From positions 8,866-72,865 of the forward strand of contig DCTT01000018.1 of assembly GCA_002329295.1 (NCBI GenBank): a stretch of 64,000 nt of DNA. The letters run 5' to 3'. How positions within the stretch are numbered: position 1 is the first letter of the stretch; the number at the start of each line of letters is the position of its first letter. The position numbers and the translations under genes were made by a program. The notes beneath the pieces are model-generated. The model was not told the origin of the DNA, searched no databases, and saw only the letters and a program-made list of their open reading frames with translations. The DNA is from Eubacteriaceae bacterium UBA1433. Its GTDB lineage: Bacteria > Bacillota > Clostridia > Eubacteriales > UBA1433. Shown in pieces: positions 3,329-29,976 of this stretch.

Positions 3329-4528
3329 ATGCAACCGATTCGAACATGCAAAAACTTACAAACTATTACACCTTCCATGACACTGGCCATTACGGCAAAG
3401 GCAAAACAGTTGCGAGCCGAGGGCAAAGATGTCATTGGCTTTGGCGCAGGAGAACCTGATTTTGATACCCCTGAGGCTATTAAACAAGCGGGGATTGCCG
3501 CCATTGAAGCGAATTTTACACGCTATACGGAAGTAAACGGCACCATGGCATTGCGCAAACTGATTTGTAAAAAGTTTCAAGAAGAAAACGGACTGGACTA
3601 TGAGCCGAAGAACATCATTGTCAACAGCGGTGCAAAACACAGTTTATATGTTGCGCTTTCTGCCATATTAAATCAGGGGGAAGAAGTGATTGTCCCCGTC
3701 CCTTATTGGGTCAGTTATCCGGAAATGGTGAAAATTGCCGGTGGAGTACCTGTATATGTACAGACAACGGCAGAAAACGGATTTAAAGTAACGGCGCAAG
3801 ACTTGCAAAATGCATTGAGCGAAAAAACAAAAGCCATTATGCTCAACTCGCCGTCAAACCCGACCGGAAGTGTATATTCGAGAGAAGAGCTGCAAGTGGT
3901 TGCTGATTTTGCGGTAAAAAATAATATCATCGTGCTCTCCGACGAGATTTATGAAAGCATTATTTATGACGGGGCAGAACATGTCAGCATTGCACAGCTG
4001 GGCGAAGAAATCAAAAAGAACACCATTGTCATCAACGGGCTTTCAAAGACCTATGCCATGACGGGATGGCGCGTTGGGTATACGGCGGCAGAAGAAGACA
4101 TTATCAAGGCCATGAGCAGCATTCAAGGGCATACCGTGTCGCACCCTGCTTCTATATCACAAAAAGCCGGAGAAGCCGCCATGACATTGGATAAAAAAAT
4201 TATCGAAGATATGGTGAGACAGTACGATGAACGACGACGATTTATGATGCGCTATATTGATGAAAATATTCCGATGTTTTCATATATCAAACCGGAAGGC
4301 GCTTTTTATCTGTATGTGGATATTTCCAAAACATTCGGAAAAACCTACAAGGGCAAAGAAGTAAACTGTGCATTGGATTTTGCCGGTGTACTCCTGGAAG
4401 AATCTTTGGTTGCGGTGATTCCCGGTGAAGGTTTTGGCACCAAAGAATTTATTCGTTTGTCTTATGCAACATCCATGAAAAACATTGAAGAAGGATTGAA
4501 AAGAATCAGAGATTTTGTAGCACAATGA
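3329..4528 (+). CDS. Class I pyridoxal-phosphate aminotransferase, aspartate aminotransferase-like
   Basis: 399 aa. Motifs GAGEPDFDTP, SNPTGSVYS and the PLP-lysine context LSKTYAMTGWRVGY. AAGGAGAG ribosome-binding site. Confidence 0.85.
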   Translation: MQPIRTCKNLQTITPSMTLAITAKAKQLRAEGKDVIGFGAGEPDFDTPEAIKQAGIAAIEANFTRYTEVNGTMALRKLICKKFQEENGLDYEPKNIIVNSGAKHSLYVALSAILNQGEEVIVPVPYWVSYPEMVKIAGGVPVYVQTTAENGFKVTAQDLQNALSEKTKAIMLNSPSNPTGSVYSREELQVVADFAVKNNIIVLSDEIYESIIYDGAEHVSIAQLGEEIKKNTIVINGLSKTYAMTGWRVGYTAAEEDIIKAMSSIQGHTVSHPASISQKAGEAAMTLDKKIIEDMVRQYDERRRFMMRYIDENIPMFSYIKPEGAFYLYVDISKTFGKTYKGKEVNCALDFAGVLLEESLVAVIPGEGFGTKEFIRLSYATSMKNIEEGLKRIRDFVAQ

Positions 4529-4546
4529 AATGATTTGAGGTAATGT

Positions 4547-5974
4547 ATGACAGAGCAATATGTAAGTCCGCTGAGCGAAAGATATGCATCTAAGGAAATG
4601 TTGCGCATTTTTTCTGCAGACAACAAGTTTTCCACCTGGCGTAAGCTGTGGGTGGCTCTGGCGGTTGCCCAAAAAGAGTTGGGTCTTCCTGTCACGGAAG
4701 AACAAATCGCACAAATGAAAGCGCATATTGATGATATTGATTATGAGAAAGCGGCGCAATACGAACAAACATTTAAGCATGACGTGATGGCGCATGTGCA
4801 TACCTATGGAGAAGCGGCGCCCAAGGCAAAGGCGATTATTCATTTGGGCGCCACAAGCGCTTATGTAGGTGACAATGCGGATTTGATAATGTATCGCCAA
4901 GGGCTGAAGTTGGTCTATGAGAAAGTTCTGTTGTTAATGGAGCGTATGAAAGATTTTGCGCTTCAATATGCAGATTTGCCCACATTGGGTTATACACATT
5001 TTCAGCCGGCTCAGTTGACTACTGTAGGCAAACGTGCAAGTTTGTGGTTATATGATTTGGTGTTGGATACGGAACAAATTCGTTTTACGCTGGATTCTTT
5101 TCGTCTGTTGGGCGTAAAAGGTACCACGGGTACACAGGCAAGCTTTATGAGTTTGTTTGAAAATGACGAGGAGAAGGTGCTGGCTCTTGAAAAATCAGTG
5201 GAAAAGCAAATGGGCTTTGAAGCGTCCTTTGCGGTTACAGGGCAAACTTATCCTCGCAAATTTGATTCTCGTATTTTGTATTGTTTGAGTGATATTGCAC
5301 AGTCCTTACACAAATGCGCTACGGATATTCGGTTATTACAACACCTCAAAGAAATAGAAGAGCCCTTTGGCAAGAAACAGATCGGCTCTTCGGCCATGGC
5401 CTATAAGCGCAATCCTATGAAGTGTGAGCGCATTTGTTCATTGGCAAGATATATTCTCACCAGCGCTATGAATCCGCAACTGACTGCATCGGTGCAATGG
5501 TTTGAGCGAACTTTGGATGACAGCGCCAATAGACGGATTTGTATTCCGGAGGCGTTCTTGGCTGCAGATGCTATTTTAAATTTGGCCATCAATGTATTTG
5601 ATGGTCTGGTTGTCAACGAAAAAGTGATTGAAAGTCATATTCGACAAGAGCTGCCTTTTATGTTGACAGAAAATATGATTATGGAAAGTGTAAAGCATGG
5701 AGCAGACAGGCAAGAGGTTCATGAGCGCATTCGCGTATTGAGTATGGAGGCGGCAGAACAGGTAAAAGTTTATGGTAAAGAAAATGACTTGCTGCAGCGC
5801 ATTGCAAAGGATGACTTGATAAAGTTGGACGAAGCACAATTGGAGAAAATGACGGATCCGAGTCTTTATGTAGGACGTTCAGGCAACCAGGTGCGTGAAT
5901 TCATCAATCAGAAAGTGTTGCCTTTATTAAAAAAACTCGACAAAACGACAAAGATTGAACAGCCAAAAGTTTGA
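4547..5974 (+). CDS. purB: Adenylosuccinate lyase
   Basis: 475 aa. N-terminus SPLSERYASKEM and fumarate-lyase signature GSSAMAYKRNP. Confidence 0.93.
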   Translation: MTEQYVSPLSERYASKEMLRIFSADNKFSTWRKLWVALAVAQKELGLPVTEEQIAQMKAHIDDIDYEKAAQYEQTFKHDVMAHVHTYGEAAPKAKAIIHLGATSAYVGDNADLIMYRQGLKLVYEKVLLLMERMKDFALQYADLPTLGYTHFQPAQLTTVGKRASLWLYDLVLDTEQIRFTLDSFRLLGVKGTTGTQASFMSLFENDEEKVLALEKSVEKQMGFEASFAVTGQTYPRKFDSRILYCLSDIAQSLHKCATDIRLLQHLKEIEEPFGKKQIGSSAMAYKRNPMKCERICSLARYILTSAMNPQLTASVQWFERTLDDSANRRICIPEAFLAADAILNLAINVFDGLVVNEKVIESHIRQELPFMLTENMIMESVKHGADRQEVHERIRVLSMEAAEQVKVYGKENDLLQRIAKDDLIKLDEAQLEKMTDPSLYVGRSGNQVREFINQKVLPLLKKLDKTTKIEQPKV

Positions 5975-5998
5975 TGGCCGAATGATAAAAAAAGAATG

Positions 5999-6037
5999 AA
6001 CACATAGCCATGTTGTATAGGCTATGTGTTTTTCTTT
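5999..6037 (+). terminator. Intrinsic terminator after purB
   Basis: aacacatagcc / ggctatgtgtt 11-bp stem, 10-nt loop, T-run. Confidence 0.75.
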
Positions 6038-6143
6038 AGAAAAGAATCATAAAGGGGTTGATTTTTTATTTCAAAAGCAGTATACTTTAATTGTTACAAA
6101 ATAGTTACAAATCAGATACACTTTATATAACTGGGGGAAGTTT

Positions 6144-6617
6144 ATGAAACGCGTTTTGACGGCATTTGTGGGCACAGCGGTTCTGATTCTTATCTTGGTT
6201 CTTTCTTTGGTTTCCTGTAAAAAGGCGGAACCTGCTTTGAAAATTGTCGATCTCGATCTTTTGAAAGAAGAAGTGAGCGCTACGATGAATATATCGATGC
6301 CTGTGGAAATTGACGAGAATATGCTGCGATCACAATATGCAATCAGTGCAAACCAGATAGAAAAATTCAGCGGCATTACTTCGGCAACGATGACTAACGC
6401 TGATACGTTTTTAGCCGTTATGGCAAAAGAAGGAAATACGGCGGTCATAGAAAGTGCATTCGAAAAACGAATCGAAGATATCAGACAGTCTTTCGCCAAT
6501 AATTTGGAGGCGAAAAAGTTGGAAAACGCAAAAATTATCAAAAAAGACGATTATGTATTTTTGGTTATCACTGATAAGCCCAAAGAAGTAGAAAAAATCA
6601 TTAACAGCCGTTTTTAA
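6144..6617 (+). CDS. DUF4358-like lipoprotein
   Basis: 157 aa. Signal peptide with lipobox LVSC. The C-terminal part resembles DUF4358 proteins (recalled from memory, no search). Confidence 0.65.
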   Translation: MKRVLTAFVGTAVLILILVLSLVSCKKAEPALKIVDLDLLKEEVSATMNISMPVEIDENMLRSQYAISANQIEKFSGITSATMTNADTFLAVMAKEGNTAVIESAFEKRIEDIRQSFANNLEAKKLENAKIIKKDDYVFLVITDKPKEVEKIINSRF

Positions 6618-6633
6618 ACGGATATGGATATGG

Positions 6634-6666
6634 ATACGTCTCGGCGCAAGCGAGGCGTATTTTTTT
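6634..6666 (+). terminator. Intrinsic terminator
   Basis: atacgtctcg / cgaggcgtat stem with one G-U pair, followed by TTTTTTT. Confidence 0.7.
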
Positions 6667-6756
6667 ATAAAGAAACGATTTATATGAATTTCAGTTGTGA
6701 AATGATTTCAAATCGACTATGATATAAGCAATATGTTAAAACGAAGGGAAGCAATT

Positions 6757-7902
6757 ATGAGTACAGAAAAATTAGAAAAACACATGAAAAAAATCATCGA
6801 TTCACAATATCAACGCATTGAAAAAATGAAAGAAGAGAAAGATTTTATTGATTATACAACACTGCGCCCTATTGTTGTAGGCCTTATAGGCGGGGACGGG
6901 ATCGGGCCTTATATAACAGAGCACACTTATCAAGTGTTAAAAGTCCTTTTACAAGAAGAAATAAATGCGGGCAAAATCGTTTTTCGAACCATTGACGGCT
7001 TGACAATTGAAAACAGAGTGCAGGCAGAAAAAGCCATTCCCGATGATGTGTTGCAAGAAATCAAGGCTTGTCATGTGTTGCTCAAAGGACCTACTACCAC
7101 ACCTAGAGCGGGTGATAAGTGGAAAAATATTGAGAGCGCCAACGTGGCTATGCGCAGAGAATTGGATTTGTTTGCAAATATTCGACCGGTTAGAGTGCCG
7201 GAAGAAGGAATCGATTGGGTGTTTTATCGTGAAAATACGGAAGGGTCTTATATTTTGGGCAGCCAGGGAATTTGCTTGGATGATGAACTGTGCATCGATT
7301 TTACCGTGACCACAAAGGAGGGCAGTGATCGCATTTTGCGCGCGGCTTTTGACTATGCAAGCAAGTCCGGAAAAAACAGGGTAACGGCAGTAACAAAGGC
7401 GAATATTATCAAGGCCACCGATGGAAAATTTTTGGAACAGGCGAAAATCATCGCCAAAGAATATCCTGCCGTTGTATTTGATGACTGGTATGTGGATATT
7501 ATGGCGGCCAAGTTGCTGGACACAAAGCGAAGGGATCAGTTTAAAGTCATTGTTTTGCCCAATCTTTACGGTGATATTTTGACCGACGAGGCTGCTGAAC
7601 TGCAGGGAGGCGTTGGCACGGCAGGAAGCGCCAATGTGGGCAAAAAATATGCGATGTTTGAGGCGATTCACGGTTCGGCGCCGAGGATGGTAGAAGAAGG
7701 CAGAGCCGCTTATGCCGATCCTTCCAGCATGATGCGCGCAGCGGTGATGATGTTGGAACACATCGGTTTTACGCAAAAAGCAAAGCAACTTTCTTCTGCA
7801 TTGGATCAAGCGGTGATATTTGAAAAGAAAGTGAAAATCACAGGTCGAGAAGATGGAGCAACCTCTGAAGAATTTTCCGAATATGTGATGAGTCTTATGT
7901 GA
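6757..7902 (+). CDS. Isocitrate/isopropylmalate dehydrogenase family protein (NAD-IDH-like; substrate not certain)
   Basis: Motifs GGDGIGPYI and NLYGDILTDEAA..GG.G...SAN.G. Start moved to ATG 6757 (GAAGGGAAG ribosome-binding site) from the track start 6733. Confidence 0.8.
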   Translation: MSTEKLEKHMKKIIDSQYQRIEKMKEEKDFIDYTTLRPIVVGLIGGDGIGPYITEHTYQVLKVLLQEEINAGKIVFRTIDGLTIENRVQAEKAIPDDVLQEIKACHVLLKGPTTTPRAGDKWKNIESANVAMRRELDLFANIRPVRVPEEGIDWVFYRENTEGSYILGSQGICLDDELCIDFTVTTKEGSDRILRAAFDYASKSGKNRVTAVTKANIIKATDGKFLEQAKIIAKEYPAVVFDDWYVDIMAAKLLDTKRRDQFKVIVLPNLYGDILTDEAAELQGGVGTAGSANVGKKYAMFEAIHGSAPRMVEEGRAAYADPSSMMRAAVMMLEHIGFTQKAKQLSSALDQAVIFEKKVKITGREDGATSEEFSEYVMSLM

Positions 7903-7934
7903 AAAAAATGCTTTTATGCGAGGTAGAATAAAAT

Positions 7935-7971
7935 AAAAAAACCTTACCCGATATCGGATAAGGTTTTTTTT
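7935..7971. terminator. Bidirectional intrinsic terminator between convergent genes
   Basis: An A-run, then the accttacccg / cggataaggt stem, then a T-run. It lies between the dehydrogenase (+) and the PBP (-). Confidence 0.75.
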
Positions 7972-7988
7972 GATATTCTATTGGGCTC

Positions 7989-10900
7989 TTACGGTTGAAC
8001 TACTTTTACGGTCAAGGTTGCAGTTCCGGTTTTACCCAAAGAGTTGGTAACGGAATATATAACGGAATATGTGCCAGGTTGATCGACATTTACAGCGGAA
8101 GAATTAATGCTTACGTTGCCGAAAGGAATATTGCCATCGGTTCCGTCCGTTACCGAATAGATAAATGTAGTAAAATCAGGTAACGGACCGCCCTTATTTA
8201 CGGTGGTAGAAGTAGGATTCAATACAATCACAGGAACGGTAATCACCGTTGTTTTCACGGTAACGTTAACCGAAGTGGAAAACGCTGAGCCATGCGGGTC
8301 GGTATAGGTAACGGTAATGACGGCGTTACCGCCTTTTTTGCCCTTGACAGTGACATTGTTGCCGGAAATGGAGACAGAAGCCACGTTGTTGTTGCTTGTG
8401 CCGGCAGAAAGATTTGTTAAACCTGATACCTGACCTCCGATAGCATTGGTGCCCTGAACAGTAAAGGTGACGGTGTCGTTTTGATTAACGGTGACATCAT
8501 TGGGCGCGGAACCACCGTAGTACAAATCAATGGCAGCCACAGAGCTGGCATTATGAATCGGGCAGTTTTCTGCCTCGCCCTCGGCAGGGAAATAGACAAC
8601 ATCCTGCTCATTTGCCGGTACAAAAGTGGGGTTCAGCGCCTTTACGCCTGCAGGGAATCGTGAGTCAGGTTTCACAATAACGACTTTTTTGGTGACCAAA
8701 TCAGGGGGGCAATATTGCGTTGCCGTTTTGCCGGAAACGTTGCAAAGAACCAGTTCCTGGTGAAAGTCATCCGGTTCGCTTGGCACGGTACCTGCAATAA
8801 ACATTTCAGTGTATACCCTTGAGCCGCGAGGGTCTCTTGAAGAAAGTTCGGTAGGTAATTTGCCGGATACGTTGTCAACGGCTGCTGTTACGATATTATC
8901 GGGACGAGCAGGAAAACTGCCGGAAGAAAGACCTTTTGCGGAATGGATTTCGCGCATATTCACTTCCCACATATAAGCGGGACCGGGCTTGCTGCCGCCA
9001 AAAATACCGATATTGAGTGTGTAGGTTTGACCGTTTGCGATTACCTTATTTTCATCATATCCATACCAAACAGCACCGGTGTAATAGGGGGTATAGCCAC
9101 AGAAATATGCGTGGCGCCGTTCGTCGGTGGTTCCTGTTTTGCCTGCTACGGGAATGCCGGAAATGCTGATTGATGTTGTGCCGCCGCGTACAACCATTTG
9201 CAATACGTCAGTAATCAAATAGGATGTAGCCGGCGAGAAAACCTGCGTTTTTTCTGCTTTGTTTTCAAAGAGTAAATTTCCTTCGCGGTCATAGACGGCA
9301 GTATATAAAAGCGGGTCGGTTCTAATGCCTTGATTTGGGAAGGTGGTAAAAGCCGCAGCCATGACCAAAGGCGTTTGACCACGGGTGTATCCTCCTAAGG
9401 ACAATGCCGCTGCGCCATAATCGGATTCTTCCAATTCTAAGCCCAGTTTAAGCGCATAGGACGAAGAGGTTTCAACACCTACCAGATACCAGGCTTGAGC
9501 GGCAACTAAGTTCAGAGATTTGGCCAGCCCGTTGCGCACGGTTGTCATCCCTGATTGTCCGCCGCCGGAGTTGGTAGGTTTCCAGCCCCCTGCATTGATG
9601 CGCACATCATCGAAAGTAGTTGCCAGTGTCAGTACGCCGGTATCAAGACCCGGACCATATACGGTCAGCGGTTTGGTGGAAGAACCGACCTGAAATTTGC
9701 GTGTGGCGCGATTGAGAGAAAGGCTTGCTGTTTTTTCTCGTCCGCCGATCAGGCCGGCAACATATCCTGTCTGATTATCAATGACCACCATGGCGCATTG
9801 CGGGATATAATTGACCGTTTCACCGGTGGCAGCGGATTTTGCTGCGCTAGCAGCACGCGCTGTTGAGCTCTGAGAAGGAAAGAGTCTGCTGTTAGAAGCA
9901 TTTTTTTCTAAGATGCTTTGAATTTGCGGATCCAAGGTAGAATGAATCACCAATCCGCCGTTAAGCAATGTATCTTGAGCCGATTCCTGCGTGTAACCAT
10001 ATTTGTTGACCATGTCTTTTAACAGTTGTTCGTAAAGCGCATCGGTGAAATATGAATATACGGTACTGGACGCGCTCTCAGGCCTAAGTCCTACATTGCC
10101 GGAGTCGATTTGCTGGATGGCAATATCATATTCGGCTTTTACAATATATTTTAATTCGAGCATTTTATTTAAAACGAGCTTGGCTCGCTCGGCATTTTTG
10201 GGGTTGAGCGGATAATATTTGTTGCCGGCTTCATCTGTTGCGGAAACAATATAGCTGACATTGTCTTCGGTGTTGGTTTCCAGAACAAAAGGCAAATATA
10301 TGCTTGGAGCCTGAGGCATGGCAGCCAATACGGCTGATTGTGCCAAGGTAAGCTCAGAACAAGGTTTGTCGAAAAAAGTATTGGACGCTGACTCAATGCC
10401 CCATGCCCAGGCAAAATTGATTTTATTTAAGTAAGCTGCCAAAATTTGATCTTTGGTCAACATGTTTTCAAGTTCTATGGACAATTTCCATTCCATAACT
10501 TTTCGTTGAATCCTTTTGACATCGCTCAAATGGGTGCCCTTGATTAGTTGTTGGGTAATGGTGCTTCCGCCCGGACCGGAGAGAGAGCGTTTTTTTACTA
10601 TATTCAAAACAGCCCTGGTAATTCCTTTCAAGTCAATGCCTTGATGGGTATAAAAACGCTCGTCTTCAATTGCAATGAATGCAAACTGCACTTGTTCGGG
10701 GATTTGGTCAATGCCAACGGCTTTGCGCTTTTCTTTTCCCTGGAGTTCCTGATAAAAATGACCGTCTTTATCAACGATGATGGAGGATTCAATGTATTTA
10801 AGATTTTCTAAATCGATATCGGGCGCTGTGGCAATCCAATAAAAACCGAAAAAGGAAAGAATGGTGCCGCCAAGCAAAATCAAAGCGAAACCAGCTACTG

Positions 10901-17952: not shown

Positions 17953-17981
17953 TTGACAAATCCAAAAAGAAGCGATATAAT
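17953..17981 (+). promoter_or_regulatory. Consensus sigma-A type promoter of the ABC exporter operon
   Basis: TTGACA (17953-17958), 17-nt spacer, TATAAT (17976-17981). Confidence 0.7.
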
Positions 17982-17990
17982 TCAAACAAA

Positions 17991-18006
17991 GTTAGCGTGC
18001 TCTAAC
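17991..18006. promoter_or_regulatory. Palindromic operator candidate GTTAG-N6-CTAAC
   Basis: gttagcgtgctctaac, about +3 to +18 relative to the predicted transcription start site. Confidence 0.55.
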
Positions 18007-18024
18007 TATATTTTTTACACAAGG

Positions 18025-18040
18025 GTTAGAATAATCTAAC
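18025..18040. promoter_or_regulatory. Palindromic operator candidate GTTAG-N6-CTAAC
   Basis: gttagaataatctaac, 37 nt upstream of the ABC gene start. Confidence 0.55.
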
Positions 18041-18076
18041 TGCCTGCGGAATATTACCATTGCATATTGGGAGTTT

Positions 18077-19822
18077 ATGGCAACGATGATCAACAGACGA
18101 TTGATTGGAACAATTAAAGAAAGCAAACCGTATATTGTTAAGAACGTGGCTTTTCAATGGGTCTCGTTGATGGCGAATATCGTTATGATGGGAGCCGTTG
18201 CCCAATTGCTCCAAAGTCTGTATCAGGGTAATGTTACTAACAAACAAACGGGTGTAACTGCGATGATGATGACAGCGGCTATCTTGGTGCGGTTTTTCTG
18301 CGCTATGGGCGCCAACCGGATGGGTTTTTTGTCTTCTAAAACGGTAAAGGCAACTCTGCGTGAGCGAATTTATCGGAAATTGCTACGACTCGGTTCTTCT
18401 TATTCCCAACAAGTCAACACTTCCGAGGTAGTGCAGATTGCAGTAGAAGGTGTAGAACAGTTAGAAACCTATTTTGGTCAATATTTGCCTCAGTTTTTTT
18501 ACGCCATCCTTGCTCCACTGACTCTGTTCATGGTTCTTGCATGCATCAGTTTTCCTGTTGCATTGGTGCTGTTGGTCTGTGTACCGCTTATTCCTGTTGC
18601 CATTATCAGTATTCAGCGATGGGCAAAGAAGCTGCTTTCTAAATACTGGGGAGAATATACGACTCTCGGTGATACTTTTTTGGAAAATCTGCAGGGATTG
18701 TGCACTACAAAGATTTATCAGGCGGACGCATTTAAGCATCAAGAAATGAACGAACAGTCGGAGCGGTTCCGTAAAATTACGATGAAAGTGCTGACCATGC
18801 AGCTCAACTCTATTACCGTCATGGATCTTATTGCCTATGGCGGTGCAGCCTTGGGGGTGATTCTGGCAGCTATTCAGTTTCGCCTTGGAAATGTGAATTT
18901 GGCCGGCTGCATTCTGATTATTTTGTTGGCAGCAGACTTTTTTCTTCCTATGCGTCTTCTGGGCAGTTTTTTCCATATATCCATGAACGGTATGGCTGCA
19001 TCGGATAAAATTTTCCACCTGCTGGATTTGCCGGAAAAAGAAGAAAAAACAAAAGTGATTTCTGCCAACTGCACTATTGAATGTTGTGACCTCTGTTTTT
19101 CCTATGAAGAAGATAGAGAAATTCTTGCAGGTATTAATATGACTTTTCCCGAGGGCAGTTTTACTGCCATTGTGGGAGAAAGCGGTTGTGGAAAGTCCAC
19201 TTTTGCATCCATTCTCATGGGTCGAAATCAAGGATATTTTGGAAGCCTCACCGTGGGCGGTGTTGAACTGAATCAAATCAGCGAAGACAGCCTCATGAAA
19301 CATTTTACTTACATTGGACACCAGAGCTATCTGTTTAAAGGCACTGTTCGGGAGAATTTGTTGATGGCTAAACCTGATGCCGAAGAAGGGACTCTTTGGG
19401 AGGTGTTAGAACAGGTGCATCTGGCAGATTTTCTTCGAGAAGAAAAAGGTTTGGATACCATGTTGAATGAAAAAGCATCCAATTTCTCCGGCGGTCAATG
19501 TCAGCGATTGGCTTTGGCACGTGCATTGCTTCATGATAGCGCTGTTTATATTTTTGATGAAGCCACTTCTAATATTGATGTAGAAAGCGAAACCAGTATT
19601 ATGGAAGAAATTAAAAATCTTGCGAAAACCAAAACCGTTATTTTGATATCTCACCGATTGGCCAATGTGGTCAGCGCTGACCAAATCTATGTGCTAAGTA
19701 ATGGGCGTATTGCGGGTTTCGGTAACCATCAAGAACTTTTGAAGCAAAATAACGATTACGCAAAGCTTTGGAATGTTCAGCAGAAGCTGGAATCTTACAA
19801 TCGTGGGGGTGCAGGCGTATGA
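18077..19822 (+). CDS. ABC transporter permease/ATP-binding protein (CydD-like half transporter)
   Basis: 581 aa. Six-TM exporter domain, Walker A GESGCGKST, signature FSGGQCQRLALAR, Walker B IFDEATSNID. Confidence 0.85.
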   Translation: MATMINRRLIGTIKESKPYIVKNVAFQWVSLMANIVMMGAVAQLLQSLYQGNVTNKQTGVTAMMMTAAILVRFFCAMGANRMGFLSSKTVKATLRERIYRKLLRLGSSYSQQVNTSEVVQIAVEGVEQLETYFGQYLPQFFYAILAPLTLFMVLACISFPVALVLLVCVPLIPVAIISIQRWAKKLLSKYWGEYTTLGDTFLENLQGLCTTKIYQADAFKHQEMNEQSERFRKITMKVLTMQLNSITVMDLIAYGGAALGVILAAIQFRLGNVNLAGCILIILLAADFFLPMRLLGSFFHISMNGMAASDKIFHLLDLPEKEEKTKVISANCTIECCDLCFSYEEDREILAGINMTFPEGSFTAIVGESGCGKSTFASILMGRNQGYFGSLTVGGVELNQISEDSLMKHFTYIGHQSYLFKGTVRENLLMAKPDAEEGTLWEVLEQVHLADFLREEKGLDTMLNEKASNFSGGQCQRLALARALLHDSAVYIFDEATSNIDVESETSIMEEIKNLAKTKTVILISHRLANVVSADQIYVLSNGRIAGFGNHQELLKQNNDYAKLWNVQQKLESYNRGGAGV

Positions 19823-21459
19823 AGCGAAACGGCTTTCAAATTATGACACGATTAACAGGTCTTGTTCGTCCCTTGATCGGCTATATGGCGTTAGCCGTTG
19901 TAATGGGTTTGGTTGGCCATTTATGCGCCAGTTTTATTACTATTTTCGGCGGTTATGCAGCGCTTGGAATTATAGGATATAAGATACCCCTGTCCTTAAG
20001 ATTTATTTTTATTTGCTTGATTGTTTTTGCATTGCTCCGGGGATTTCTTCGATATGCCGAACAGTTTTGTAATCATCTTATTGCCTTCAAGCTTCTTGCA
20101 TTGATTCGCGACAAAATCTTCGGCGCGTTAAGAAGGCTATGTCCGGCGAAACTGGATGGCAAAGATAAAGGAGACTTGATTGCAGTCATCACTTCCGATA
20201 TTGAGCTTTTGGAGGTTTTTTACGCCCACACCATTTCCCCTGTCTGCATTGCTCTTCTTTTTTCCGGTGTGATGGTTGCGTTTATCGGATCCTATCATAT
20301 TGCGTTGGCTGTGTTAGCGCTGATTGCGTATTTAACCGTCGGTATAGCCGTTCCGATCGTGACTTCTAAAATCAGCGGAGATGATGGCATGCGCTTTCGT
20401 TGCAAATCCGGACAGTTATCTGCCTTCGTGCTGGATAGTCTTCGCGGATTGCAAGAAATTATTCAGTACAGACAGGGAGAAAATCGTGTGGCGGAAATGA
20501 ATGACCGTACCAATGCTCTTTCTAAAGACGAAGAGAAGATGAAACGAACTGCAGGTCGCAACAGCGCTGTTACCGATACGGTAATTTTGATATTCGATTT
20601 TGTCATGTTGTTTATGTCTGCGGTACTTGTGGGATTTGAAGGAGCTTTGATTGTCACGTTAGCATTGATGAGTTCTTTTGGTCCTGTAGTTGCTTTGGCG
20701 GCGTTGGGAAGCACGTTGCAAAATACCTTTGCTGCAGGAAACAGGGTGCTGGACATTTTGGATGAAAATCCTGTGGTGGAAGAAATAAGCGGGAAACCTA
20801 AGGTAGATTTTAGAGGTGCATCTGCAAAAAATGTCATTTTTTCTTATAGAGAGGAAATAGTTTTAGATAATTTCTCGGTGGAAATTCCGGAAAATAAGAT
20901 TATTGGTATTACCGGTCGTTCCGGTTCCGGCAAATCCACGCTGTTGAAGCTTTTTATGCGATTTTGGCAGGTACAGAGCGGTGAAATCGCTATCAGCAAA
21001 ATCAGTGTAAATCATATCAATACTGCAAATCTTCGTGATATGGAAAGTTTCGTCACTCAAGAAACACACTTGTTTCATGATTCCATTCGCAACAATTTGC
21101 GCATTGCAAAACAAGATGCAACGGAGGAAGAAATTATTGCAGCTTGCAAAAAAGCCTCTGTTCACGATTTTATTCTTTCTTTGCCCAAAGGCTATGATGC
21201 GGAGGTCGGTGAGCTTGGCGATACCTTATCAGGCGGTGAGCGACAGCGTCTGGGGTTGGCCAGGGCGTTTCTCCATAATGCGCCTTTTCTGTTATTGGAT
21301 GAGCCTACTTCCAATTTGGATAGTTTGAATGAAGCGGTGATTTTGAGGTCGTTGAAAGAAGAAAGTCAGGGAAAAACTGTGGTTTTGGTGTCTCATCGAA
21401 AGTCTACTATGGGCATTGCAGACATAGCCCATTCCGTAGAACACGGAAGAATCAGTTGA
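19819..21459 (+). CDS. ABC transporter permease/ATP-binding protein (CydC-like half transporter)
   Basis: Start ATG 19819 forms an ATGA overlap with the upstream stop. Walker A GRSGSGKST, signature LSGGERQRLGLAR, Walker B LLLDEPTSNLD. Confidence 0.85.
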   Translation: MKRNGFQIMTRLTGLVRPLIGYMALAVVMGLVGHLCASFITIFGGYAALGIIGYKIPLSLRFIFICLIVFALLRGFLRYAEQFCNHLIAFKLLALIRDKIFGALRRLCPAKLDGKDKGDLIAVITSDIELLEVFYAHTISPVCIALLFSGVMVAFIGSYHIALAVLALIAYLTVGIAVPIVTSKISGDDGMRFRCKSGQLSAFVLDSLRGLQEIIQYRQGENRVAEMNDRTNALSKDEEKMKRTAGRNSAVTDTVILIFDFVMLFMSAVLVGFEGALIVTLALMSSFGPVVALAALGSTLQNTFAAGNRVLDILDENPVVEEISGKPKVDFRGASAKNVIFSYREEIVLDNFSVEIPENKIIGITGRSGSGKSTLLKLFMRFWQVQSGEIAISKISVNHINTANLRDMESFVTQETHLFHDSIRNNLRIAKQDATEEEIIAACKKASVHDFILSLPKGYDAEVGELGDTLSGGERQRLGLARAFLHNAPFLLLDEPTSNLDSLNEAVILRSLKEESQGKTVVLVSHRKSTMGIADIAHSVEHGRIS

Positions 21460-25457: not shown

Positions 25458-26438
25458 ATGAAAAAGAAAGTTTATATTGCAGATGATACCATTGTCAGTA
25501 AAGACATTGCAGAAAGGATTTTTGATTCCGAAAAATATGAATTGTATTTTTCTATGAGCAAAACAGAGGAAGACTTAATTGCGAACTGCAAAGACGCCAA
25601 TGCTTTGATTGTCACCGATTGTGATGTGACAAAAAAAGTTCTTGACGCTATGCCCAACTTGGAATATGTATCGGGAGCAATCATCGGGTTTAACACCATA
25701 GATCTTGAAGAAACCAAAAAACGCGGTATTCCGGTTTCCAATAATCCGCGTTATTGCACAAATGAAGTGGCAGACCATACATGTTCGTTGATTATGACCT
25801 TGAATCGATATATTTTAGAGTTGAACAGAGATGTACAGGTTGATCATAAATGGACGCGCGGCCATAGTATTCCCGGCAACAAAATCCGCAGACTCAATAC
25901 GCAGGTGCTTGGAATGTTCGGCTTTGGCGCTATTGCAAAAGCCGTGGCAAAACGCATGCAGGCATTTGGCTTGACCGTGATTGCTTATGACCCTTATGTG
26001 TCTAAAGAAGTAGGTGATTCGCTGAATGTGGAAATGGTAGAAATTGACGAATTGTGCAAACGTGCAAACATTATCTCGATCCATATGCCGCATATGGACT
26101 CTACAGACAAGATGATTAACAAGTCGTTGTTTGATAAAATGGAACAAAATCCGATTATCGTAAACTGTGCCAGAGGCGGCGTTGTGAATGAAGATGACCT
26201 TGTAGAAGCGCTGAAATCCGGACAACTCAGCGGAGCCGGTCTGGATGTTGTAAGTGACGAAAGAGCGCCAATCGGCGACAATCCGCTTTTGGGGCTGGAA
26301 CATGTGATTATCACTCCTCATGCAGCGTATTATTCCTACGACGCAAGAATCGAAATGCAAGAGTTGAGCTGCAAACATGTAGTTTGGTTCTATGAAGGCG
26401 AAAAAGACAAATTACCTATCGTAAACGGGGTCAAATAA
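25458..26438 (+). CDS. D-isomer-specific 2-hydroxyacid dehydrogenase, CtBP-like
   Basis: 326 aa. NNPRYCTNEVADHT, GMFGFGAIAK NAD fold, CARGG, ITPHAAYYS. Confidence 0.85.
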   Translation: MKKKVYIADDTIVSKDIAERIFDSEKYELYFSMSKTEEDLIANCKDANALIVTDCDVTKKVLDAMPNLEYVSGAIIGFNTIDLEETKKRGIPVSNNPRYCTNEVADHTCSLIMTLNRYILELNRDVQVDHKWTRGHSIPGNKIRRLNTQVLGMFGFGAIAKAVAKRMQAFGLTVIAYDPYVSKEVGDSLNVEMVEIDELCKRANIISIHMPHMDSTDKMINKSLFDKMEQNPIIVNCARGGVVNEDDLVEALKSGQLSGAGLDVVSDERAPIGDNPLLGLEHVIITPHAAYYSYDARIEMQELSCKHVVWFYEGEKDKLPIVNGVK

Positions 26439-26486
26439 TATAACAATGCCGGCTATAATCGGCGTGTTTACCTTTGACGAAAGATT

Positions 26487-26519
26487 AAGCCTCTGTCGTT
26501 ATAACGACAGAGGCTTTTT
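26487..26519 (+). terminator. Intrinsic terminator
   Basis: gcctctgtcg / cgacagaggc stem followed by TTTTT. Confidence 0.8.
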
Positions 26520-26577
26520 GTTTAAAAACATCCGTTTTTTTGTGTTGAACCATTATAGCGGTAAACACTGAAAAAAT

Positions 26578-26949
26578 TCAGTTTTTTAGCTGTTTCATAT
26601 AATTTTGAATTGCCGCAAAAGTCGCCTCGCTGATTTCGTGTTCCACTTTGCAAGCATCTTCATCGGCCGTTTCGTCATCAACGCCTAAAGCGATGAAAAA
26701 ATCAGTCAGTACGTTATGTCGCTCATAGATGCGTTTGGCGATGTCCATTCCCGCAGAAGTCAACGTAATTAATCCGTCGGTATCCATCGTAATATAGCCG
26801 TTTTCGCGAAGCCGTTTGGTGGCATAGCTGACACTGGGTTTTGTAACGCCTAATTCTGCGGCAATATCAACAGAACGTACATAGCCGTGTCGTTTTTTTA
26901 AAACAAGCATTGCTTCCAGATAATCTTCTGATGATTTTAATATTCTCAT
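26578..26949 (-). CDS. DtxR/MntR family metal-dependent transcriptional repressor (short form, no SH3-like domain)
   Basis: 123 aa. MRILKSSEDYLEAM..GYVRSVDIAAELGVTKPSVS.ATKRL..GY helix-turn-helix plus a metal-binding helical domain. Divergent from feoA. Confidence 0.85.
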   Translation of the reverse strand: MRILKSSEDYLEAMLVLKKRHGYVRSVDIAAELGVTKPSVSYATKRLRENGYITMDTDGLITLTSAGMDIAKRIYERHNVLTDFFIALGVDDETADEDACKVEHEISEATFAAIQNYMKQLKN

Positions 26950-27022
26950 AATGATTTTTTCCCCGCATTCAATGAATCTACAGTCACGTTAACATATTTG
27001 ATAAAAAAAGACAAGAAAATGC

Positions 27023-27051
27023 TTGACATATTGAGTTAGAGGCGTTAAACT
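27023..27051 (+). promoter_or_regulatory. feo operon promoter
   Basis: TTGACA (27023-27028), 17-nt spacer, TAAACT (27046-27051). Confidence 0.55.
27035..27050. promoter_or_regulatory. Palindromic operator candidate (imperfect) GTTAG-N6-TTAAAC
   Basis: gttagaggcgttaaac overlaps the promoter spacer and -10. Confidence 0.4.
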
Positions 27052-27057
27052 ATTCGA

Positions 27058-27077
27058 TAGTTAGACAAAACTAACTA
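27058..27077. promoter_or_regulatory. Palindromic operator candidate TAGTTAG-N6-CTAACTA
   Basis: tagttagacaaaactaacta with perfect 7-bp arms, at the predicted transcript start. Confidence 0.6.
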
Positions 27078-27116
27078 AAAAACAAATTGTCTGTAATCGG
27101 AAAGGCGGCGAGAAGA

Positions 27117-27326
27117 ATGGTATTGTCAAAGGCGGAAATCGGAAAGCCTGTCTGCATTCGGGAAATTCAAGGTGAAAATGAGATGCGAAAACACTTGGGT
27201 GAGTTGGGTTTGGTGGTAGGAGAAGAGGTTAGCATCGTATTGAAATGCGCAGGGAATTTTATTCTGCAAGTAAAAGACAGCCGCTTGGCATTGGATGCCG
27301 GAATGGTAAACAGAATTATTATTTAG
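27117..27326 (+). CDS. feoA: Ferrous iron transport protein A (FeoA)
   Basis: FeoA-size SH3-like sequence (M)VLSKAEIGKPVCIREI..LGELGLVVGEEVSIV. ATG 27117 is preferred over the TTG 27087 track start, but the choice is uncertain. Confidence 0.8.
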   Translation: MVLSKAEIGKPVCIREIQGENEMRKHLGELGLVVGEEVSIVLKCAGNFILQVKDSRLALDAGMVNRIII

Positions 27327-27342
27327 TGGGAGGAGACGAAAA

Positions 27343-27564
27343 ATGAAAACATTACGGGACGCTAAAATCGGCGAAATTGTCGTTGTGGCAAAATTACACG
27401 GTGAAGGAGCGACGAAACGGCGCATTATGGATATGGGCATTACAAAGGGCACCAATATTTTTGTTCGCAAATCCGCGCCGCTGGGTGACCCATTGGAGAT
27501 CAATGTGCGCGGCTATGAGCTTTCTTTGCGAAAGGCTGATGCGGAAATGATTGAAATCAAATAA
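27343..27564 (+). CDS. feoA: Ferrous iron transport protein A (FeoA), second copy
   Basis: 73 aa. L.DAKIGEIVVV..RRIMDMGITKGT. GGAGGAG ribosome-binding site. Confidence 0.88.
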   Translation: MKTLRDAKIGEIVVVAKLHGEGATKRRIMDMGITKGTNIFVRKSAPLGDPLEINVRGYELSLRKADAEMIEIK

Positions 27565-27578
27565 TTTTTTTAAGCAAA

Positions 27579-27598
27579 AAGTTAGACAAGGCTAACTA
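27579..27598. promoter_or_regulatory. Palindromic operator candidate AGTTAG-N6-CTAACT between feoA2 and feoB
   Basis: aagttagacaaggctaacta. With its flank it is near-identical to the 27058-27083 module. Confidence 0.55.
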
Positions 27599-27612
27599 AA
27601 AAAGGAGGAGAC

Positions 27613-29775
27613 ATGAAAATCAACATTGCCCTTGCAGGGAATCCGAACAGTGGAAAAACCACGCTTTTCAATCGATTGACCGGTTCAAATCAATATGTAG
27701 GTAACTGGCCAGGCGTGACGGTTGAAAAAAAAGAAGGAAGAGTCAAAGACAATAAAAACATCATTATCCAGGATTTGCCGGGAATTTATTCGCTGTCGCC
27801 TTATTCACCGGAAGAGGCCATTGCGAGAAAATATTTATTGGAAGAGAAACCGGACGCTATTATCAATGTTGTAGATGCTACCAATATGGAACGAAATCTG
27901 TATTTGACCACTCAGCTGGCGGAATTAGGCATACCGGTGATAGTTGCCTTAAATATGATGGATGTTGTAAGGAAAAATAAAGATGAAATAAATTTAAAAA
28001 AGATGAGCAGAGCCCTAGGTTGCGAAGTGGTGGAAATCAGTGCTTTGAAAGGAGAGGGTATTGAGCGGTTGATGGACAAAGCCGTTGCAGCAGCGATGAA
28101 CAAGGAGAGAAGAGAGCCGCTGCATGTGTTTACAGGCAGCGTGGAACACGCAATCGCTCATATAGAAGAATCGATTTTGGATAAGGTAGACCACGGGGCG
28201 ATGCGATGGTATGCGATAAAAATTTTTGAAAGAGATGAGCAGACTTTACAAAAATTAAATTTAGGAGACGATCTCCTAGAACACCTGGAAAAACATATTA
28301 CAGACTGTGAAAGCGAGATGGACGACGATGCGCAAAGTATTATTACCACTCAACGTTACGCATATATCAAGAATATCGCTGAAGAGGCGGTGAAGAAAAA
28401 AGCGCCGAAATTCAGTCTTTCCGCTTCCGATAAAATCGATCGAATTGTAACCAATCGTATTTTGGCGCTGCCGATTTTTGCTGCTGTCATGTTTGTGGTT
28501 TATTATATATCCATCGGCTCCGTAGGCGCTTGGGTTACTGATTGGACAAATGAGACATTGTTTTCAGAAATCATAGCCGGCAATCTGCGCACCTGGATGG
28601 AAGCTGTCGGCATGCAGGCATGGTTCGTCGGTTTGGTTGTGGACGGGATAGTGGGCGGGGTGGGCGCTGTGTTGGGTTTTGTGCCGCAAATGCTGATCTT
28701 GTTTCTCATGCTTTCGATTTTGGAGGATATCGGTTATATGGCGCGTGTTGCCTTTATTATGGACCGCATCTTCCGCAAATTCGGACTTTCGGGCAAAAGC
28801 TTTATTCCGATGTTGATTGGATCGGGGTGCAGTGTGCCCGGTATCATGGCTTGCAGAACCATTGAAAACGAAAGAGATCGAAGAATGACAATTATGACCA
28901 CAAGTTTTGTTCCCTGCGGAGCAAAAATGCCCATTATTGCACTGTTTGCCGGCGCTTTGTTTGGCGGCAGCGGCTTCGTGGCTGTGTCCGCCTATTTTAT
29001 CGGAGTGGCGGCCGTCTTGGTTTCGGGTGTTATTTTAAAGAAAACGAAGGCTTTTTCAGGAAAACCGGCTCCGTTTGTAATGGAGTTGCCGCCTTACCAT
29101 GCTCCTGCTTCAAGCAACGTACTTCATGCCACTTGGGAGAGAGGCTGGAGCTTTATCAAACGTGCAGGAACCATTATTTTAGCCTCTGCCGTTGTGTTGT
29201 GGTTTTTGCAAAGCTTCGGTATAGAGTCAGGAACACTGACAATGGTAGAAGACAACAATACAAGTTTACTTGCTTCTATCGGCAACGCAGTGGCGATACT
29301 CTTTAAACCTTTGGGCTTTGGCGACTGGAAAGCAGCAGTTGCCACCTTTACAGGGCTGATAGCAAAGGAAAATGTGGTGGGCACCTTCGGTGTGTTATAT
29401 GGTATGGCGGAAGTAGCCGAAAACGGTGCAGAAATCTGGAGTGCCTTAGCGGCAGATTATACAGCGCTTACTGCTTACAGTTTTATGATCTTCAATTTGC
29501 TTTGCGCACCTTGTTTTGCTGCGATTGGAGCCATTAGAAGAGAAATGAACAGCGCAAAATGGACGTGGTTATCTATCGGATATCTTACAATTTTTGCTTA
29601 TGCGATTTCGTTTTTGGTGTATCAATTCGGCCAGTTTTTCTTAAACAAAGTTTGGGGTGTGGGAACCGTAGCAGCATTGATAGTTCTTGTCGGAATGCTG
29701 TGGCTTTTGTTTAGAAAAAATAAATATGATACGGAAAGATTCACTGCTGCAGTACTGGCAAATCAGGTGAAATAA
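27613..29775 (+). CDS. feoB: Ferrous iron transporter FeoB
   Basis: 720 aa. G-domain GNPNSGKTTLFN, DLPG, and a polytopic membrane domain. Confidence 0.96.
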   Translation: MKINIALAGNPNSGKTTLFNRLTGSNQYVGNWPGVTVEKKEGRVKDNKNIIIQDLPGIYSLSPYSPEEAIARKYLLEEKPDAIINVVDATNMERNLYLTTQLAELGIPVIVALNMMDVVRKNKDEINLKKMSRALGCEVVEISALKGEGIERLMDKAVAAAMNKERREPLHVFTGSVEHAIAHIEESILDKVDHGAMRWYAIKIFERDEQTLQKLNLGDDLLEHLEKHITDCESEMDDDAQSIITTQRYAYIKNIAEEAVKKKAPKFSLSASDKIDRIVTNRILALPIFAAVMFVVYYISIGSVGAWVTDWTNETLFSEIIAGNLRTWMEAVGMQAWFVGLVVDGIVGGVGAVLGFVPQMLILFLMLSILEDIGYMARVAFIMDRIFRKFGLSGKSFIPMLIGSGCSVPGIMACRTIENERDRRMTIMTTSFVPCGAKMPIIALFAGALFGGSGFVAVSAYFIGVAAVLVSGVILKKTKAFSGKPAPFVMELPPYHAPASSNVLHATWERGWSFIKRAGTIILASAVVLWFLQSFGIESGTLTMVEDNNTSLLASIGNAVAILFKPLGFGDWKAAVATFTGLIAKENVVGTFGVLYGMAEVAENGAEIWSALAADYTALTAYSFMIFNLLCAPCFAAIGAIRREMNSAKWTWLSIGYLTIFAYAISFLVYQFGQFFLNKVWGVGTVAALIVLVGMLWLLFRKNKYDTERFTAAVLANQVK

Positions 29776-29976
29776 ATGACTTTGCAGACAGTGGTTCAAA
29801 ATATTCCCACGTTGTTAGGCAGCGTTGTTGTCGCCGCAATCGTTATTGCCGTTATTGTAACGCATATTAAAAAACGCAAGAATGGTCAAGGTGGCTGCAA
29901 CGGCTGTAGCAGCTGCGTTTATCATCATTGCAAAAAAAATACAGATAACACAAAAAGAAAAAGTTCATATTTGTAG
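29776..29976 (+). CDS. FeoB-associated Cys-rich membrane protein
   Basis: 66 aa. One TM helix then GGCNGCSSC..HHC. The start abuts the feoB stop. Confidence 0.8.
   Translation: MTLQTVVQNIPTLLGSVVVAAIVIAVIVTHIKKRKNGQGGCNGCSSCVYHHCKKNTDNTKRKSSYL

Follow-up and report, generated by a model that had tools for sequence, protein, structure and literature searches.

The 64,000-nucleotide stretch of Eubacteriaceae bacterium UBA1433 DNA analyzed here (the window) contains a ferrous iron transport (feo) operon whose feoA promoter carries two palindromes of the form GTTAG-N6-CTAAC, while a gene for a 123-amino-acid regulator of the DtxR/MntR family leaves the same intergenic region on the opposite strand. 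This layout raises the question of whether the palindromes are the operators of the neighboring regulator, of which metal would be sensed, and of whether the spacing between the arms, from which an earlier note on this DNA argued for an operator architecture unlike the characterized ones, sets them apart. According to our analysis, the boxes are quite probably the operators of the divergent DtxR/MntR-family repressor, which would shut off feo when metal is sufficient, the metal most likely being Fe2+. We infer from the sequence that the regulator binds the boxes, that binding results in repression, and that Fe2+ is the corepressor; repression by the metal-loaded form and the choice of Fe2+ are suggested by the behavior of the family, by the nature of the target genes, and by a cysteine among the predicted metal ligands.

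The feoA promoter consists of a -35 hexamer TTGACA at 27023-27028, a 17-nt spacer, and a -10 hexamer TAAACT at 27046-27051 (promoter-scan score, 10/12). The first palindrome, gttagaggcgttaaac (27035-27050), when widened to the 18-mer 27034-27051 (box A), shows two mismatches to AGTTAG-N6-CTAACT; its left arm lies inside the promoter spacer, and the -10 hexamer serves as its degenerate right arm. The second palindrome, tagttagacaaaactaacta (27058-27077), has perfect 7-bp arms and contains box B, which starts 25 bp after the start of box A, about 7 nt past the -10 hexamer and 1 to 2 bases past the transcript start, which is predicted near 27058. The promoter, the positions of both palindromes, and the perfect arms had all been described in the earlier note with coordinates that check out, and the start codon of the divergent regulator gene, estimated there to be about 75 bp away, was measured at 74 bp from the -35 hexamer. 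To these two boxes our analysis adds three more (boxes C, D1, and D2 in Table 1).

In the window, the perfect word AGTTAG-N6-CTAACT occurs three times, compared to 0.00 in 100 shuffles, and the three sites are box B, the box in the feoA2-feoB spacer, and one of a pair at the promoter of an ATP-binding cassette (ABC) transporter operon. When up to two mismatches are allowed, five sites are found versus 1.4 in shuffles, and all five window boxes fall within the promoters or leaders of operons for metal transport. Palindromy as such was considered and rejected as the signal; since perfect palindromes of the generic form 7-N6-7 are common here (16 versus 4.5 in shuffles), palindromy alone is weak evidence, but the specific word is not. 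An additional match, GGTTATATTTTTTTAACT at 142-159 (14.7 bits by position weight matrix [PWM]), lies upstream of ruvA/ruvB-like genes, so labeled by eye from their translations, and was discarded as being within the chance range and devoid of metal-related context.

Conservation was inspected in 80 loci from species-representative genomes, each encoding a homolog of the regulator (60 to 76% identity) and taken with 4-kb flanks, which amount to 578 kb in total and come mostly from Oscillospiraceae, Christensenellales-like bacteria, Lachnospiraceae, and other Clostridia. Among exact GTTAG-Nk-CTAAC matches with k between 0 and 14, the spacing k = 6 is found 48 times, k = 10 five times, k = 11 once, and every other spacing never; the five N10 matches do not represent a second operator spacing, as they arise from sequences flanking N6 boxes (e.g., TAGTTAG and CTAACTAA). 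A search started from TTAG-N6-CTAA, a core with less bias, gives a similar picture, with 57 sites versus 0 to 5 for most other spacings, and the flanks of these sites yield the consensus R-GTTAG-A-N4-T-CTAAC-Y. In this consensus, inverted half-sites of 4 to 5 bp have their centers about 10 to 11 bp from each other, and no spacing other than N6 is enriched. Boxes are concentrated upstream of the regulator gene (3.07 per kb over 300 bp) and in the feoA-feoB spacer (5.39 per kb); elsewhere their density is 0.034 per kb. Where regulator and feo are divergent, at least one box is present in the shared intergenic region of 30 of 33 loci, and at least two boxes are present in 19 of the 33; the conservation of the palindrome upstream of feo in related genomes, which the earlier note had proposed as a check, is thus observed. 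The composite TTGAC-N6-8-GTTAG-N6-TAAAC recurs in 27 of the 80 loci, in 22 of which a second box follows 8 to 13 nt further on, and because of this conserved composite we regard the imperfect box A as a real, if predicted, site. A common promoter design can be read from the aligned related loci, namely, TTGACA, 6 to 7 nt, GTTAG, 6 nt, TAAACT, 7 to 12 nt, and GTTAG-N6-CTAAC, often followed about 34 bp later by a third box, and the commonest spacing between neighboring boxes is 33 to 35 bp.

The reverse route, from paired boxes to genes, was followed in at least 120 metagenome contigs (L081 to L200) picked solely for carrying two perfect cores 7 to 21 nt apart, with neighbors considered within 1.5 kb; the counts that follow are among the matches listed. 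Genes of feo lie near the paired boxes in 38 contigs, a homolog of the regulator in 24, and a CydDC-like ABC gene in 7, and NEAT heme-binding proteins (three), NrdI (two), and ZIP transporters (two) are also encoded beside them. According to sequence comparison, this gene content reads as an iron regulon, of which the non-feo neighbors are candidate members. In the 200 loci formed by the 80 homolog loci and the listed metagenome matches, neither mntH nor mntABC was seen next to boxes. Other neighbors of the paired boxes are a 204- to 210-amino-acid S-adenosylmethionine-dependent methyltransferase (10 contigs), DUF2325 (6 contigs), DUF3793 (2 contigs), and a CobW/HypB-type GTPase encoded divergently from a Crp-family regulator (2 contigs).

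The assignment of the regulator to the DtxR/MntR type, already made in the earlier note, agrees with both domain and fold searches. Residues 5 to 55 match the N-terminal winged helix-turn-helix family PF01325 (44.7 bits; cutoff, 26), and residues 64 to 122 match the helical dimerization and metal-binding family PF02742 (52.7 bits; cutoff, 27); the chain ends at residue 123, after the dimerization domain, and therefore lacks the SH3-like third domain. The best NCBIfam match is MntR (PRK11050, NF008273; 103.8 bits), below the cutoff of 153; the MntR equivalog NF003025 gives 80.1 bits, below the cutoff of 138, and the DtxR/IdeR family NF053665 gives 31.2 bits and does not reach its cutoff of 290. 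In the AlphaFold2 model (predicted local distance difference test score, 90), helices are found at 26-33 and 37-49, and a beta wing at 53-63. Foldseek relates this model to MntR structures, including the DNA-bound 9c4c, with template modeling (TM) scores of 0.86 to 0.88 and a best root mean square deviation of about 1.5 Å, and less closely to the first two domains of DtxR/IdeR (TM score, 0.79 to 0.84); the relatives identified by sequence in the PDB are the MntR entries 2h09, 6kta, and 1on1. Homologs fall into 5,379 clusters at an E value of ≤0.001, the closest (97% identity) coming from a Eubacteriaceae metagenome-assembled genome (MAG).

The predicted metal ligands D9, E12, H78, C100, E103, and H104 are invariant in 16 homologs. 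In an ungapped alignment to Bacillus subtilis MntR they correspond to D8, E11, H77, E99, E102, and H103, so that five of the six MntR ligand positions are kept, including Asp9 where DtxR has Met10. In the alignment to DtxR, D9 faces M10, H78 faces H79, and C100, E103, and H104 face C102, E105, and H106; of the two sulfur ligands of the DtxR primary site, Met10 and Cys102, the regulator therefore has the cysteine (C100) and an aspartate (Asp9) in place of the methionine. Since the ligands match those of MntR save for Cys100, which matches DtxR Cys102, the predicted metal site is MntR-like with one DtxR-like cysteine. Together with the conserved boxes, the family of the regulator supports the layout of a metalloregulator and its operator that had been recognized at the feo promoter.

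In the mechanism that we propose, each 18-bp box would bind one metal-loaded dimer, its two recognition helices entering consecutive major grooves, one in each. At metal sufficiency, dimers on box A, covering spacer and -10 hexamer, and on box B, at the transcript start, would span roughly -24 to +19 and exclude RNA polymerase, i.e., act by classic occlusion; when metal is scarce, the dimers would be released and RNA polymerase admitted to the feoA promoter. The same repressor would control the ABC transporter operon from the two boxes located immediately past its promoter, and a third feo site would be occupied directly before the feoB ribosome-binding site. The distances of 25 and 34 bp from center to center correspond to 2.4 and 3.2 helical turns, so that neighboring dimers would not lie on one face of the DNA; these distances also differ from the 19-bp register of cooperative MntR arrays, and independent or additive binding is assumed for this reason.

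Several points weigh against an Fe2+-dependent repressor acting on these boxes. The PWM score of box A (12.9 bits) is the same as the average top score of shuffled windows and is not significant alone; as a stand-alone match it was dropped, and it was kept solely for its conserved position, the low score being explained by its right arm, which is the -10 hexamer itself. The feoA transcript start is a prediction, and the spacings between boxes would offer no evident cooperative mechanism. Furthermore, 43 of the 80 homolog loci have no feo nearby and mostly no box within their 4-kb flanks. Finally, Mn2+ or a dual specificity is possible, since Asp9 occupies the position of DtxR Met10 and the named proteins closest to the regulator sense Mn. 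Taken further, this last point leads to an explanation with the same operators and the same repressor, in which the sensed metal is Mn2+ (or Mn2+ and Fe2+) and the Feo-type transporter serves manganese uptake. It is known that one Porphyromonas gingivalis FeoB paralog transports manganese, and the MntR-like families, structures, and ligand positions described above, as well as the NrdI and ZIP genes found beside paired boxes among the listed metagenome matches, point in the same direction. Nevertheless, we deem manganese sensing unlikely: the regulator scores below the cutoffs of both MntR equivalogs, an invariant Cys stands in place of MntR Glu99, as it does in Fe sensors, and beside the boxes feo dominates and NEAT proteins occur among the matches listed, with the mnt genes not seen. 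Iron rather than manganese is favored by the targets, which are feo and heme genes, and by the invariant Cys100, which stands for DtxR Cys102 where MntR has Glu99; selectivity for Fe2+ has been associated with sulfur ligands at this metal site in a 2024 review (PMC11672702).

It is also conceivable that the boxes are bound by another transcription factor and that the DtxR-family gene lies beside feo for a different reason, the binding of the boxes by this regulator being itself predicted, and the homolog loci devoid of feo and mostly of boxes could be taken in the same sense. We give this explanation little credit, since DtxR-family operators have this TTAG half-site and N6 geometry, the boxes lie in the shared intergenic region of nearly all divergent loci, a box precedes the regulator's own start by 52 to 66 nt in about 18 loci, as autoregulation predicts, and contigs picked by the motif alone return a regulator homolog within 1.5 kb in the numbers given above. 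Least probable of all, and hardly to be expected, is that the palindromes are not DNA operators but form RNA hairpins, in the leader of feoA and before feoB, that would affect mRNA stability or translation. Box B is indeed predicted to be transcribed, forming a stem of 7 bp at the leader's 5' end, and box C adjoins the Shine-Dalgarno sequence of feoB; yet the arms are conserved in sequence and not by compensatory change, the loop varies, and box A is not self-complementary and sits in the promoter. The fold of the feoA leader is unremarkable (z = -1.61), and neither the leader nor the feoA2-feoB spacer has an Rfam match; elsewhere across 26400-27800, Rfam returned a few subthreshold matches, all well below gathering scores.

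Table 1. Predicted features of the feo and ABC transporter loci in the window, with the evidence for each
Feature	Position	Strand	Evidence
CydD/CydC-like ABC operon promoter, TTGACA-N17-TATAAT	17953..17981	+	12/12 consensus match
Box D1, AGTTAGCGTGCTCTAACT	17990..18007		perfect box; PWM 22.4 bits; just past -10, around predicted transcript start
Box D2, GGTTAGAATAATCTAACT	18024..18041		perfect core; PWM 22.9 bits; 34 bp after D1
CydD/CydC-like heterodimeric ABC exporter-type transporter, two overlapping genes	18077-19822, ~19819-21459	+	TIGR02857, TIGR02868
Two-domain DtxR/MntR-family metalloregulator, 123 aa	26578..26949	-	Pfam PF01325 and PF02742, fold, ligand alignment
feoA promoter (-35, 17-nt spacer, -10)	27023..27051	+	promoter scan; composite conserved in 27/80 related loci
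Box A, AGTTAGAGGCGTTAAACT	27034..27051		2 mismatches; PWM 12.9 bits; layout recurs in orthologous promoters
Box B, AGTTAGACAAAACTAACT	27059..27076		perfect box; PWM 19.9 bits; at predicted transcript start
feoA copy 1	27117..27326	+	PF04023, 48 bits
feoA copy 2	27343..27564	+	PF04023, 72.8 bits
Box C, AGTTAGACAAGGCTAACT	27580..27597		perfect box in 48-bp feoA2-feoB spacer; PWM 20.7 bits
feoB, ferrous iron transporter	27613..29775	+	TIGR00437, 584.8 bits, above cutoff; Pfam FeoB_N, Gate, FeoB_C
FeoB-associated Cys-rich membrane protein	29776..29976	+	PF12669, 36.5 bits

Box C stops 4 nt short of the Shine-Dalgarno sequence of feoB, and this placement recurs in relatives: a box was found within 120 bp upstream of 33 of the 64 feoB starts examined (in L001, L006, L007, L013, L018, L022, L025, L037, L047, L071, and other loci), and in 28 of the 64 it ends 15 to 31 nt before the start codon. 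No internal promoter before feoB was detected by consensus scan, and inspection by eye gave only weak candidates. Box C could act as a transcriptional roadblock, as the anchor of a loop of about 520 bp to the promoter boxes, or as the operator of a weak internal promoter. A broader proposal, which we put forward only tentatively, is that a very large group of Clostridia from gut and rumen, with more than 5,000 clusters of homologous proteins, would rely on the regulator and its hybrid Asp/Cys metal site as the main Fe2+ sensor, which would govern feo, NEAT proteins, the CydDC-like ABC transporter, and other genes, and that box C is in addition a distinct control point, either a roadblock uncoupling feoB from feoA or the anchor of the 520-bp loop. 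In the literature searched, no control point between feoA and feoB has been described for Feo operons.

The ABC transporter operon is a second predicted member of the regulon. Counted from its predicted transcript start, box D1 spans about +1 to +18 and box D2 about +35 to +52. The two gene products score 397 bits against TIGR02857 (cutoff, 435) and 304.7 bits against TIGR02868 (cutoff, 329), and CydD is the best single-subunit PDB match of the pair; since both scores stay below the equivalog cutoffs, identity with true CydDC was rejected. In metagenome contig L116 (2533-6859), paired boxes and an open reading frame for a NEAT-like heme-binding protein precede an orthologous pair (60% and 63% identity), an arrangement that hints at a heme- or iron-related substrate of the transporter, and in Anaerotignum neopropionicum DSM 3847 (L049, about 4474-8010) a box is present upstream of a CydDC-like pair.

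With regard to the regulator gene itself, the boxes found in about 18 relatives at the distance from its start codon mentioned above (L001, L007, L021, L022, L046, L053, L058, and others) have the form GTTAGAGTRTGTTAAC and share the construction of box A, the right arm occupying a -10-like position; they probably serve autoregulation. At the corresponding place in the window (26985-27005) a candidate box was rejected, being decayed to one half-site (GTTAAC) with mismatches at 5 of 10 core positions, and since this half-site alone survives, autoregulation may have been lost in the window copy of the regulator. The decayed box has left a trace in the direct repeat CGTTAACATATTTGATA / CGTTAAACTATTCGATA at 26987-27003 and 27043-27059. 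For the regulator gene of the window, the consensus scan detected no promoter, and only weak candidates were seen by eye. A second, distant paralog of the regulator (32 to 44% identity) is encoded near the first in L007 (365-634), L029 (727-999), L056 (7126-7470), and L062 (4500-4856), and in the last locus a box lies between the two paralog genes (4419-4436). In the window, the regulator gene converges with a 2-hydroxyacid dehydrogenase gene (25458-26438), and the hairpin between them (26487-26516), which has a 13-bp stem and T runs on both sides, probably terminates transcription in both directions.

We found no description of the motif or of the regulator subfamily in the full-text literature searched, literal patterns included; regulon databases (e.g., RegPrecise) were outside this search. 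What is described here would be a new member of a known regulator family and not a new mechanism, with a repressor regulon that probably responds to Fe2+ and occurs widely among Clostridia. Although unsurprising to specialists, it is useful for the annotation of gut and rumen Clostridia, as discussions of how anaerobic gut Firmicutes control iron usually center on Fur and short DtxR-type genes beside feo are annotated merely as "metal-dependent transcriptional regulator." The 18-bp box, the promoter whose -10 hexamer doubles as a half-site, and the list of coregulated genes (feo, CydDC-like ABC, and NEAT) make the regulon predictable in thousands of MAGs.

DtxR homologs beside feo have been reported in other organisms. 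In Akkermansia muciniphila (Amuc_1082; PMC12552655), Methanococcus voltae (PMC8516115), and Pyrococcus furiosus (cited in PMC8516115), a homolog encoded beside feoAB is coexpressed with it under iron limitation. All three are proposed to be Fe2+-dependent feo repressors, and we liken them to the window regulator by gene position; the Akkermansia and methanogen reports define no operator (PMC12552655, PMC8516115).

Comparison with operators that have been characterized does not bear out the suggestion that the N6 spacing reflects a different architecture, since the geometry per dimer is canonical. The suggestion was drawn from a textbook DtxR/IdeR box with GTTAG and CTAAC arms one base apart, a comparison that misleads because it joins half-sites belonging to two different dimers. 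The 19-bp IdeR/DtxR box TTAGGTTAGSCTAACCTAA consists, according to crystal structures, of four CCTAA repeats, of which one dimer binds repeats 1 and 3, a second one repeats 2 and 4, and a designed site with one pair of repeats is bound by a single IdeR dimer with similar affinity (PMC8464063). Repeats 1 and 3 read TTAGG-N4-SCTAA, and the unit bound per dimer is therefore TTAG-N6-CTAA, the core found here. Exact GTTAG-N1-CTAAC was found neither in the window nor in the 578 kb of related loci, where three sites with one mismatch occur. The family unit is thus one dimer on TTAG-N6-CTAA, and lineages vary the arrangement of units.

The window system shares with IdeR/DtxR the TTAG/CTAA half-site core, the spacing per dimer, single-dimer sites that are functional in the case of IdeR, the Cys-x2-Glu-His motif, and a proline in the recognition helix (Pro38 for DtxR Pro39), and, by prediction, a metal-loaded repressor acting on iron-uptake promoters. 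It differs in the absence of the SH3-like domain, in Asp9 for Met10, and in overall sequence (25% identity over 110 residues). The base-contacting Gln43 is replaced by Tyr42, and repeats read TCTAA and not CCTAA, with T for C at repeat position 1, a change with which the Tyr42 substitution presumably goes; the box units are separate and not four interleaved repeats.

With the MntR proteins of B. subtilis and Escherichia coli (1on1, 2h09, and 9c4c), the regulator shares the two-domain fold (TM score, 0.88) and the occurrence of paired sites on some promoters. The B. subtilis MntR site is likewise 18 bp long per dimer and consists of two 9-bp inverted repeats, with the recognition helix contacting base pairs 4 to 7 (PMC11882963), compared to conserved bases 4 to 8 in the window boxes, and the enterobacterial MntR box AACATAGCnnnnGCTATGTT (PMC1698941) has the same geometry, ATAG-N6-CTAT. 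The regulator is distinguished from MntR by the cysteine in place of Glu99, by scores below both NCBIfam MntR cutoffs, by the half-site sequence, and by boxes on feo and on an exporter-type ABC pair and not on mntH or mntABC; the spacing of 25 or 34 bp also differs from the 19 bp of cooperative MntR arrays (PMC11882963).

Another regulator with this geometry is TroR of Haloferax volcanii, a DtxR-family regulator of iron homeostasis whose motif from chromatin immunoprecipitation sequencing, TTTAGGC-NNN-CCTAAA, is of the form TTAG-N6-CTAA, and whose tandem motifs, about 30 bp apart on iron-uptake promoters, each suffice for repression; the motif of SirR is TTTwGAnnnnTCwAAA (PMC10783522). TroR is archaeal, works on archaeal promoters, has siderophore genes and dpsA and not feo among its targets, and differs in the flanks of its sites, with GGC/GCC where the boxes described here have R-G...C-Y outside the core. 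As the IdeR site per dimer, the 18-bp MntR site, and the TroR site all match in geometry, the predicted operator unit of the window belongs to the canonical, single-dimer TTAG-N6-CTAA class, and the real difference, as far as the boxes can be read, is that the dimer sites are placed side by side, 25 or 34 bp from start to start, and not interleaved at an offset of 5 bp.

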